NCBI GenBank assembly: GCA_964405805.1 | Contig: CAYOPE010000005.1 | Coordinates: forward strand, 1-38,183 | DNA from: an uncultured Candidatus Saccharibacteria bacterium | Lineage (GTDB): Bacteria; Patescibacteriota; Doudnabacteria; UBA920; O2-02-FULL-48-8 | Direction of reading: 5' to 3' | Length of the DNA stretch: 38,183 nucleotides | Part shown: piece by piece, positions 36,491 through 38,183 of the stretch | Layout: each line of letters begins with the position of its first letter | How positions within the stretch are numbered: the first letter of the stretch is position 1 | Notes under the pieces: generated by a model | Databases searched by the model: none | What the model was told of the DNA's origin: nothing | The model's input: only the letters and a program-made list of their open reading frames with translations | Position numbers and translations under genes: made by a program

Positions 36491-37045
36491 TCAGTTGGCT
36501 AGAGGTAGCTGATCCAGTTCGTTTAGAGTTTTGCTGACTGCTAAAACCCAAGTTGGGCTATAAGAGCCTACATACCTACGAACGATTTCTTTTGGAGTAT
36601 CTTTACCATCTGGTAAATATTTTCTGGTTAACAAATCGTCAACATCAGAAAATCCTTCAGCAAAAGATTTATATCGTTTCAAGTTCCAGGCGCCACCGAC
36701 TCCCCAACAGTTGTTGTACATCTGCCGCTTACACATCGTAGATTCACCATTGGAAATAGCTAATACTAGTTTCCAATTGTCATTCTCTAAGATCTGCTCA
36801 GCGTAAGGGGCGAGCGGAGAACCTTTCTTTTGTAAGTAATCTTGTAAGATTGCGATATTCGGATCTACTTGTGGAGTCTTGACTGTATCAGCTGAATTGT
36901 CGGGATTTGTTTTGCTATTGATGTAATCGTTAACAGTGTTTATTTCAAGGACGAGAGAGTTTTGAGTTTGGGCAGATGCTAGGGAGGGAAACATTGCTGT
37001 AACCGCAACCACTAAAAGCATCACCAAGACAAAACGACTTGTCAT
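36491..37045 (-). CDS. secreted lysozyme/glucosaminidase-like protein (paralog 2)
   Basis: signal peptide ending ASA; YLQKKGSPLA, NWKLVLAISNGESTMC, NNCWGVGG. Confidence 0.75.
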   Translation of the reverse strand: MTSRFVLVMLLVVAVTAMFPSLASAQTQNSLVLEINTVNDYINSKTNPDNSADTVKTPQVDPNIAILQDYLQKKGSPLAPYAEQILENDNWKLVLAISNGESTMCKRQMYNNCWGVGGAWNLKRYKSFAEGFSDVDDLLTRKYLPDGKDTPKEIVRRYVGSYSPTWVLAVSKTLNELDQLPLAN

Positions 37046-37114
37046 TGAATATACTTTCCACGCTAGTTTAATCGCTCTCCTGTCGAGAGACTAAAAAAGC
37101 TTGGTTAGACCTTT

Positions 37115-37143
37115 ACCCGCTCACCAAAAATTGGTGAGTGGGT
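37115..37143. repeat. palindromic hairpin
   Basis: ACCCGCTCACCA-AAAAT-TGGTGAGTGGGT, further enclosed by AAGCTT...AAGCTT. Confidence 0.65.
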
Positions 37144-37163
37144 TTATAAGCTTAAAAAGAACC

Positions 37164-37240
37164 ATTGCGCGGCTCATTAAGCAGAAAAGCTTAATGTTGC
37201 CTGCCCCCGCCTGGCACGAGGCCAGGACGGGGTACGCAAC
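37164..37240 (-). ncRNA. candidate structured 5' leader RNA (three-way junction), family unassigned
   Basis: starts about 5 nt after the -10 box; P1 TTGCG/CGCAA, P2 CCCCG-CCTGGC/GCCAGG-CGGGG, P3 GGC..CATTAAGC/GCTTAATG..GCC. Confidence 0.55.
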
Positions 37241-37245
37241 TATCA

Positions 37246-37274
37246 ATATTAGCACAAAATCGAGGTTTTGTCAA
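37246..37274 (-). promoter_or_regulatory. sigma70 promoter for the leader and paralog 2
   Basis: TTGACA-17 nt-TG-extended TAATAT. Confidence 0.75.
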
Positions 37275-37340
37275 GAGCTAAGGATGGGTAGTGTGGCTAA
37301 TAATTTGGCATACGCTAAATGCTTGAGGTATAATATAATC

Positions 37341-38003
37341 ATGAAACCCCTGAGTCGCATTCAGTTTGAACCATGGTCTGCTAATCTCGCTTATGCCGTG
37401 GGTCTTTTAACTACTGACGGTAATCTTTCTAAAGATGGTCGCCATTTAGATTTAACATCAAAGGACCTTGATCAATTAGAAAATTTTATGAAATGTATAG
37501 GGATTAGAGTTAAGATTGGTTACAAATCGTCTGGCTATACAGGTAAGAAGACAACGCATATTCAGTTTGGAGATGTAATGTTTTATAGATTTCTCTTAAG
37601 CATCGGTCTTCACCCAAATAAGACCAAGACTTTATCGAAGTTGAAAATACCAGATAAATATTTCTTTGATTTTTTACGAGGTCATTTTGACGGAGATGGC
37701 TGCTCCTATTCTTACTGGGATCCTCGCTGGCGTTCGAGCTTTATGCTTTATATGACTTTTGTCGGCGCAAGCATAAAACATATTGATTGGATTCAAAAAA
37801 CAATCTATAAACTCTTGAAAATTAAAGGACGGATGAGTAAAAATAAAAATATCCACCAATTGAGATATGCAAAAGGCGAGTCTTTAATTTTAATTAAGAG
37901 AATGTATTATAGTGAAGATACGGTTTGCTTGAAGAGGAAGCTCTTGAAAATTCAGGCAGCTTTAAGTATAATCAATCAGCATAATCCTGCGCGGGTGGTG
38001 TAA
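37341..38003 (+). CDS. free-standing LAGLIDADG homing endonuclease-like protein (two motifs, 220 aa)
   Basis: LAYAVGLLTTDG and FLRGHFDGDG; start MKPLS lies 6 nt after TATAAT; stop falls inside tRNA-Leu. Confidence 0.9.
   Translation: MKPLSRIQFEPWSANLAYAVGLLTTDGNLSKDGRHLDLTSKDLDQLENFMKCIGIRVKIGYKSSGYTGKKTTHIQFGDVMFYRFLLSIGLHPNKTKTLSKLKIPDKYFFDFLRGHFDGDGCSYSYWDPRWRSSFMLYMTFVGASIKHIDWIQKTIYKLLKIKGRMSKNKNIHQLRYAKGESLILIKRMYYSEDTVCLKRKLLKIQAALSIINQHNPARVV
37944..37972 (+). promoter_or_regulatory. tRNA-Leu(GAG) promoter embedded in the LAGLIDADG CDS
   Basis: TTGAAA-17 nt-TATAAT, ending 16 nt before the tRNA. Confidence 0.7.
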
Positions 38004-38075
38004 CTGGCAGCCACGCAGCCTTGAGGTGGCTGTGCCCGAAAGGGCGTGGAGGTTCGAGTCCTCTCCCGCGCACCA
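37989..38075 (+). tRNA. tRNA-Leu(GAG)
   Basis: GCGCGGG/CCCGCGC acceptor stem, CAGCC-TTGAGGT-GGCTG, long variable arm, GGTTCGA, encoded CCA. Confidence 0.97.
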
Positions 38076-38183
38076 AAATTAGGGTTTTAATAGAGTCCCA
38101 GAAAAAATTAGGTGCGCAGGACGAAGTCCGAGCACATATTTTTTCTGAAAGGAGCAGCAGCTAGACCATAGCACTTTTACGTA

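Follow-up and report, generated by a model that had tools for sequence, protein, structure and literature searches.

Why should a LAGLIDADG endonuclease gene that sits in neither an intron nor an intein end inside a transfer RNA (tRNA) gene? The question is raised by a 38,183-nucleotide (nt) stretch of DNA from an uncultured bacterium, hereafter the window, which is the entire contig C5 (CAYOPE010000005.1) of an 830-kb genome of Patescibacteria type assembled in 40 contigs. Near its right end, a putative homing endonuclease gene (HEG) for a protein of 220 amino acids (aa) with two LAGLIDADG motifs runs 15 nt into an intact tRNA-Leu(GAG) gene. This arrangement was described in the original prediction, made from the letters of the window, and both its coordinates and its sequence agree with what we find. 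We consider it quite probable that the element is a mobile, free-standing LAGLIDADG homing-endonuclease cassette living at the tRNA-Leu(GAG) gene. How such a cassette may have entered an essential gene can be answered with less assurance.

The enzyme and its docking on tRNA genes

The reading frame of the HEG is open since position 37101 of the plus strand and closes with a stop codon at 38001–38003. Its start at ATG 37341 agrees with the N-terminus of all close homologs (MKP...), and a 300-aa open reading frame (ORF) started by TTG at 37101 was rejected, as the homologs begin at that ATG. The last five codons, GCG CGG GTG GTG TAA (A-R-V-V-stop), are positions 1–15 of the tRNA, which is the sole Leu(GAG) among the 46 tRNA genes of the genome, and the HEG is likewise present in a single copy. 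The contig ends 108 nt past the tRNA. The stretch is present in one public sequencing run, possibly that of the source sample, and no RNA data set is listed as containing it. Assembly of this run yielded one contig over 36440–38072 with 0 differences and no alternative joint, a result that is uninformative on empty alleles and RNA ends.

The two motifs of the protein, LAYAVGLLTTDG and FLRGHFDGDG (cores LLTTDG and FDGDG), each contribute one acidic residue, D26 and D119, and neither residue varies among 18 aligned homologs, the mean column identity of which is 72%. Against the Pfam family LAGLIDADG_3 (PF14528) the window protein scores 16.1 bits, below the gathering cut-off of 22.5. Many close homologs carry a precomputed PF14528 match, and we take the sub-threshold score as a limit of sensitivity and not as an exclusion from the LAGLIDADG superfamily; a search of NCBIfam with the protein gave no match. 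The AlphaFold model (predicted local distance difference test score, pLDDT, 78.6) shows the order H-E-E-H-E-E-H twice, that is, two alpha-beta-beta-alpha-beta-beta-alpha domains. Its best Foldseek match is I-Tsp061I (2dch; E 6.9e-10, template modelling scores 0.64/0.68), followed by an intein endonuclease domain, WhiA (3hyi, E 2.9e-8), I-AniI and I-SceI. There are 141 PDB matches at E ≤ 0.001, and the top-ranked among the matches listed are LAGLIDADG enzymes and their engineered variants. By sequence, too, 2dch is the closest solved relative (phmmer E 0.001, profile E 5.5e-5). The HEG product is thus placed as an intact, free-standing, single-chain LAGLIDADG enzyme, and it is probably active, judging by its motifs and its predicted fold. 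It resembles the single-chain two-motif enzymes I-Tsp061I and I-DmoI in fold, in size and in having two acid-ended LAGLIDADG helices. Those enzymes are encoded in archaeal ribosomal RNA (rRNA) introns, whereas the HEG of the window is free-standing, bacterial, located beside a tRNA and only ~16% identical to them. By descent it would be grouped with those single-chain enzymes from archaeal introns.

A single protein search yielded 4205 relatives from many groups of Patescibacteria, and many of these proteins have an identity of 59–74% and a length of 209–249 aa. We examined 33 true genome loci, the window included, and the best 80 of the 462 relatives found in a metagenome scan. One further locus (L005), one of two single-protein contig-scan loci, was a spurious chance match of 15 residues and was dropped from all counts. 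At 30 of the 32 genome loci other than the window, the ORF is adjoined by a same-strand tRNA, the 5' end of which falls anywhere from 44 nt before the end of the ORF to 35 nt after it; the two loci without such an adjoining tRNA are L024 and L029. In the metagenomes, tRNA-Leu follows directly downstream at all 75 assessable loci (74 GAG, 1 AAG), the other five of the 80 having contig ends less than 90 nt past the match. The adjacency of this family to tRNA genes is far beyond chance. The original prediction had proposed to look up which isoacceptor is involved, and the answer differs between clades: that of the window pairs with Leu(GAG), CAG or TAG, a clade ~42% identical to the window HEG pairs with Phe(GAA), and clades ~30% identical to it pair with Asp(GTC) and Cys(GCA). 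When tRNA labels are placed on the HEG tree, 8 changes are needed (minimum 7), compared with a mean of 18.2 for shuffled labels, and none of 200 shuffles reached so low a number; the Phe and Cys clades have supports of 97/97 and 100/100, respectively. Each HEG clade goes with one tRNA species. Since in the Phe clade the gene lies within a Leu-Val-[gene]-Phe-Gly array and has no promoter site in its last codons, the data suggest that there it is transcribed together with the tRNAs. In viral contigs we found 13 distant relatives (26–39% identity), 0 of 13 followed by a same-strand tRNA, and no phage vector was found among them.

A precedent for a homing endonuclease gene that stands free among clustered tRNA genes is SegB of phage T4, the recognition site of which includes a conserved tRNA motif and which, in the parts of PMC2330249 drawn on here, is a case of 'intronless homing' that spreads with neighbouring tRNA sequence. 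SegB shares with the window HEG the placement of a free nuclease gene among tRNA genes. As portrayed in the same parts of that paper, however, it is a GIY-YIG enzyme of a phage with a T-loop motif as target, whereas the gene studied here encodes a LAGLIDADG enzyme, lies on a cellular chromosome, flush to one tRNA species, and is accompanied by a tRNA relic and a tRNA promoter. In bacteria of the candidate phyla radiation (CPR), excerpts of PMC11270868 place LAGLIDADG genes in insertions of 16S or 23S rRNA, with group I introns as a frequent setting. Those genes share with the window HEG the phylum, the superfamily and the targeting of conserved RNA genes, but they lie inside rRNA, and the word 'tRNA' has 0 occurrences in the main text of that paper (supplements being outside the scope). 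Endonuclease genes in rRNA spacers are mentioned in PMC8172020, and the LAGLIDADG work on these bacteria that our searches retrieved concerns rRNA insertions in the relevant portions of PMC7143001 and PMC10714607 as well. Our literature searches, within the same scope, retrieved no description of tRNA-docked LAGLIDADG cassettes in these bacteria, and the family is apparently undescribed in print.

Patchy presence and a mosaic tRNA

Among species representatives, this genome included, the HEG is carried by 3 of 25 family members and by 34 of 401 genomes in the phylum sample. Three copies have internal stops, and in some genomes several paralogs coexist, located at different tRNAs. An order-level search for tRNA-Leu(GAG) found 24 of 27 other loci without the HEG. 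Several relatives share the gene order of the window, namely, tRNA-Cys, tRNA-Leu(TAA), a minus-strand gene of ~200 aa, a spacer and tRNA-Leu(GAG)-Val-Phe-Gly. At their empty sites the spacer measures 276–312 nt and a native promoter-like site ends ~13–17 nt before the tRNA; in the window a 295-nt spacer is followed by the HEG and then by the tRNA. At a locus that is conserved in other respects, the HEG is thus present in some relatives and absent from others. The patchy presence, the empty sites within the same gene order and the broken copies are the reasons for which we regard the element as mobile. Together with the docking at tRNA 5' ends, they bear out the idea of a tRNA-anchored selfish element with which the original prediction had started, and they supply the empty-site relatives that it had suggested looking for. 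The contrary case that it had named, a gene conserved vertically in the manner of WhiA and without empty alleles, is not what the distribution over 34 of 401 genomes looks like.

The same data bear on whether the protein might have been domesticated, that is, whether it is a LAGLIDADG protein that, like WhiA, has no mobility left and works for the host at tRNA loci, perhaps as a DNA-binding regulator of their transcription. We regard this as very unlikely, since a host-serving gene is hard to reconcile with presence in so few genomes of the family and the phylum, with empty sites and with broken copies, and since some genomes have several paralogs at different tRNAs. Moreover, both catalytic aspartates are invariant, and no C-terminal helix-turn-helix (HTH) domain of the WhiA type was found by Pfam or in the AlphaFold model. 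In favour of domestication are the strong conservation (72% mean column identity over the 18 homologs, 4205 relatives), the rank of WhiA (3hyi) among the top fold matches and the conserved relic upstream of the gene (see below), which could be a binding site.

A mobile cassette may also have left its mark on the tRNA. The centre of tRNA-Leu(GAG) in the window (positions 8–44) matches that of the HEG-bearing genome G244, which belongs to another family, at 35 of 37 positions, compared with 25–27 of 37 for all but one of the 12 genomes that lack the HEG within the family of this bacterium; G023 is the own-family exception, with 32 of 37. Conversely, the ends (1–7 and 45–84) match those of 11 of the 12 HEG-less own-family genomes at 36–44 of 47 positions and those of G244 at 36 of 47. 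The native D-stem type, GCG, occurs in 0 of 4 HEG-bearing vs 19 of 24 HEG-less genomes of the order sample, in which kin are not independent and three families are spanned. The tRNA of the window thus appears to be a mosaic, which fits a conversion tract that would have arrived with the HEG. By itself the window is of modest value; it is, however, a well-preserved member of the family, and the gene order kept at the family level makes its empty sites and its mosaic tRNA easy to recognise.

Upstream relic, internal promoter and a proposed route of entry

According to the original prediction, the HEG interrupts no host gene. This part needs a correction: directly upstream, positions 37306–37327 are a relic of tRNA-Leu(GAG) that extends from the D-loop to the anticodon loop (TTGGCATACGCTAAATGCTTGAGG at 37305–37328), and its presence there implies that a tRNA gene was once interrupted. 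To follow the relic through the family, we wrote the motif TGG[CT]A[TG]ACGC-N5-8-TTGAG from the HEG loci and searched for it, with up to 2 substitutions, in at most 200 nt of upstream sequence. It is found upstream of the HEG at 69 of the 93 loci with enough upstream sequence. HEG-less loci gave 29 matches, 27 of them inside tRNA-Leu genes and 0 just upstream of tRNA-Leu(GAG), and a genome-wide search gave 23 matches in 1.66 Mb, including 37306–37327 and the real tRNA. Across loci the relic starts near tRNA position 14 and ends at 37/38; its opening bases form a -35-like TTGG[CT]A, and a TATAAT-like hexamer usually comes after it. Because the relics are more alike between loci than to the adjoining tRNA, they are taken to be inherited with the cassette and under some constraint.

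In the window, the first six bases of the relic are the -35-like hexamer of a promoter-like site, TTGGCA-18-TATAAT (37305–37334), which matches 11 of 12 consensus positions and is followed by 6 nt and the ATG; the consensus scan reported 7 such sites in the region, compared with 2.6 ± 1.8 in shuffled sequence. The leaderless-type promoter of its own that had been claimed for the HEG is therefore present, with the amendment that it lies in a conserved tRNA relic. Leaderless spacing, with the relic ending 11–14 nt before the start, is shared by 14 of 69 relatives. The remaining ones have leaders of 17–120 nt, some with Shine-Dalgarno-like runs, or start inside or right after the relic. We also considered that the upstream promoter might simply be the native tRNA promoter and rejected this as the whole story, as the relic motif travels with the HEG across families. 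The bases to the left of 37305 align with native sequence of relatives.

A decayed stub of tRNA positions 1–13 upstream of the relic is weakly indicated. The candidate in the window (GGATGGGTAGTGT) matches the tRNA beside it with a shuffle p of 0.075, and across loci a match of at least 9/13 occurs in 10 of 68, the mean best match being 6.29 vs 5.64 in shuffles. Local alignment of each upstream region with the locus's own tRNA was a weaker test than the motif count and gave modest scores: z is 2.5 (p 0.023) for the window and at least 3.0 at four loci, one of these aligning a real neighbouring tRNA, and no signal was obtained in the Phe, Asp or Cys clades. The features of the locus are collected in Table 1.

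Table 1. Positions of the HEG, the tRNA gene and associated features in the window
Feature	Position	Strand	Basis
Possible decayed stub of tRNA-Leu positions 1–13, weak	37282..37294	+	9/13 match
Relic of tRNA-Leu(GAG), D-loop to anticodon loop	37305..37328	+	Motif match 37306–37327
-10-like hexamer TATAAT, 6 nt before ATG (leaderless-type spacing)	37329..37334	+	Consensus scan
LAGLIDADG homing endonuclease gene, free-standing, two-motif	37341..38003	+	220 aa plus stop
Promoter-like site TTGAAA-17-TATAAT in the last codons (L-K-I ... I-I-N)	37944..37972	+	Consensus scan, 11/12
Intact tRNA-Leu(GAG)	37989..38075	+	ARAGORN and Rfam (44.2 bits)
Terminator-like hairpin with A-run and U-run, 3' of the tRNA	38096..38147	+	Folding

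The relic ends at the classic tRNA intron site, and the closest solved relative of the enzyme comes from an archaeal rRNA intron. Both facts would suit a gene that is the ORF of a present-day tRNA intron, either group I or of the archaeal bulge-helix-bulge type, spliced from a split tRNA-Leu. A complete tRNA stands downstream, however, and the relic is without positions 1–13, so there is no 5' exon; furthermore, no intron RNA family was detected by Rfam at E ≤ 5. An intron in the present is therefore extremely unlikely, and such a state may describe the ancestor of the element instead. Pfam detected no intein domain in the protein, which has merely 220 aa, so the remark in the original prediction that Hint and intein motifs are missing stands.

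At the other end of the gene, 16 nt separate the -10 hexamer of the last-codon site from the tRNA. A near-consensus tRNA promoter in the 3' end of the HEG had been predicted, and TTGAAA-17-TATAAT is indeed there. A site that meets the scan criteria with its -10 ending 4–25 nt before the tRNA was found at 39 of 96 tRNA-Leu loci vs 22 of 686 control windows placed in the interior of these genes, and it is nearly always TTGAAA-17-TATAAT placed over conserved L-K-I and I-I-N codons. The broader claim that the element supplies the promoter of its tRNA holds for the window and ~40% of the family. As a separate observation, the native promoter regions upstream of tRNA-Leu(GAG) in two HEG-less loci, L042 (G019) and L036 (G023), resemble the last-codon promoter of the window beyond the hexamers (e.g. 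TATAATCAA.CAG), and G023 also has a tRNA of the T13 type, the D-loop variant discussed below. Either the HEG has been lost there, or the internal promoter of the cassette was derived from a native tRNA promoter.

For the mobile cassette at tRNA-Leu(GAG), we propose the following cycle. In tRNA-Leu(GAG) genes that lack the HEG, the enzyme would make a cut within the anticodon arm or close to it, at about the end point of the relic, and the break would be repaired from a cassette-bearing copy. Along with the relic and its promoter, repair would copy in the HEG, the last-codon promoter and the donor's tRNA sequence from the 5' end through the centre, and an intact tRNA would be rebuilt downstream with no intron involved. 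Cutting and repair at the anticodon arm would explain both the end of the relic at 37/38 and the mosaic tRNA of the window. The relic promoter would then drive the HEG, in the window probably as a leaderless mRNA, and transcripts of the tRNA would come from the internal promoter, from read-through or from both, with RNase P then releasing the tRNA. A more specific version, which we put forward only tentatively and hold to be possible rather than probable, is that the cassette invades an essential tRNA gene at 37/38 intron-free and brings a replacement 5' and central segment, with compensatory stem changes that possibly immunise the rebuilt gene against the nuclease; the 25-nt relic would then be promoter, left homology arm for entry into naive tRNA-Leu genes of unrelated genomes and possibly also an operator to which the nuclease binds. 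Autorepression by I-TevI is a precedent for an operator bound by a nuclease.

A parallel to such an exchange is offered by the mORFs of fungal mitochondria, mobile endonuclease ORFs that carry a foreign 3' end of atp6, atp9, cox2 or nad3, as set out in the sections of PMC3630166 on which this comparison is based. In the mORFs, and by the proposed cycle in the window too, an intron-free LAGLIDADG insertion brings a replacement part, the native part is left unexpressed and the gene becomes a hybrid. The mORFs, as far as those sections go, concern protein genes and replace the 3' end; in the window the gene is a tRNA, of which the 5' and central part would have been replaced and a conserved promoter-like element left over. 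Of what defines a cassette of this type, a relic and a mosaic tRNA are seen here, but the relic is cassette-inherited, positions 1–7 are of host type and the compared segments are short, so that assignment to this type is tentative.

Several observations weigh against the proposed cycle or against parts of it. The acceptor 5' strand (1–7), which lies between the HEG and the foreign-looking centre, is of host type, and a simple conversion tract fails to explain this. A similar centre (33 of 37) occurs in the HEG-less G390, and with compared segments as short as these convergence is possible. Between the window HEG and that of G244 the identity is just 51%, and the tree does not resolve the position of the former. 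In all loci the start of the relic lies at about position 14, for which the cycle gives no reason, and the resemblance among its copies shows that the relic is inherited with the cassette and not made anew at each insertion. By the criteria given above, the last-codon promoter is absent in 57 of 96 loci. An intact tRNA beside the HEG would still carry any target in the anticodon arm, and only some cassette tRNAs clearly differ from the local native type, which leaves self-protection unexplained. Finally, both the cleavage site and the activity of the enzyme are predicted ones.

On the usual view, an essential RNA gene is open to a homing endonuclease only if the insertion is hidden in a self-splicing intron. 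The family described here suggests another route, open to bacteria without tRNA splicing: dock on a tRNA gene, rebuild the gene and supply its promoter. With its 4205 relatives, it could explain mosaic tRNA genes and some of the contig breaks in Patescibacteria assemblies, and it offers natural nucleases with long, conserved targets in tRNA genes. If intron-free invasion does take place, these elements would move tRNA segments horizontally across Patescibacteria and would represent a bacterial, splicing-free descendant of the archaeal intron endonucleases.

The 15-nt overlap and the neighbourhood of the locus

In the original prediction, the overlap itself was given a function: RNase P, cutting at 37989, would remove the stop codon from the mRNA, and surveillance of the non-stop mRNA would limit a toxic enzyme. 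The agent of this surveillance would be transfer-messenger RNA (tmRNA). The parts for such an evolved brake are present, namely, a stop at tRNA positions 13–15, an RNase P RNA (C6:31829–32135 of this genome, G000; 121.5 bits) and a tmRNA on C7, and the stop lies inside the tRNA at 18 of the 30 other genome loci and 25 of the 75 metagenome loci. In the metagenomes, however, it lies 0–18 nt before the tRNA at 49 of 75 loci and 51 nt before it at one, and because the stop thus precedes the tRNA in 50 of 75 relatives, the feature is not conserved. An ordinary gene behaves alike: the RNase HII gene of the same genome (C2:3860–4510, equal to L159 261–911; Pfam E 1.4e-33), used as a control, ends 15 nt inside tRNA-Ser(CGA), and another ORF overlaps tRNA-Val by 1 nt. 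Of the 46 tRNAs of the genome, 13 are accompanied by an ORF (100 aa or longer) whose end falls in the range -40..+50 nt; 3 such ORFs stop inside the tRNA. The T13 variant of the D-loop, which supplies the TAA, is found at 17 loci with earlier-stopping ORFs vs 15 loci with ORFs that use it; being about equally common beside both, it was rejected as a trait selected to provide the HEG stop codon. We therefore regard the brake as unlikely and find the throttling of the nuclease by RNase P poorly supported as an evolved feature; the 15-nt overlap looks like an incidental result of genes being set flush in a compact genome and not like a control device. The original prediction had also named two findings that would speak against it, a lack of tRNA association among homologs and ORFs that normally end before the tRNA. 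The first is contradicted by 30 of 32 genome and 75 of 75 metagenome loci; the second is what most metagenome homologs do.

Downstream of the tRNA, the sequence 38076–38183 folds with -27.3 kcal/mol (z -2.96) and contains the terminator-like hairpin of Table 1, which was not called by the consensus scan. Upstream of the HEG, a gene for a secreted-looking protein of 184 aa (36491–37045, minus strand) has a promoter-like site, TTGACA-17-TAATAT (37274–37246), and a leader of ~195 nt (37046–37274). The leader has a conserved core, AGUUGCGUACCC-hairpin-GGG.AGGCAAC, the distal stem of which covaries in 7 relatives. It matched no Rfam family and could be an undescribed cis-regulatory RNA.

A different ORF is docked on a tRNA in two related genomes (L036 2052–2720 in G023 and L057 2007–2717 in G425). 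It is 222 or 236 aa long, begins with an HTH, contains YWAEG[DY], which resembles a LAGLIDADG motif, and runs 10–21 nt into a tRNA-Gly(GCC) that occupies the usual place of tRNA-Phe in the array. A comparison of its product with the window enzyme by hhalign gave no detectable relation (probability 0.7%).

The Leu(GAG)-Val-Phe-Gly array that is usual in relatives is broken up in the assembly studied here, with C37 ending 2 nt before tRNA-Phe. The sole Val(TAC) call of the genome is an odd 81-nt tRNA (C20:1611–1691) that lies in a G+C-rich stretch of C20. The contigs assembled from the sequencing run break in the tRNA T-arm, which is common to many organisms in the sample.

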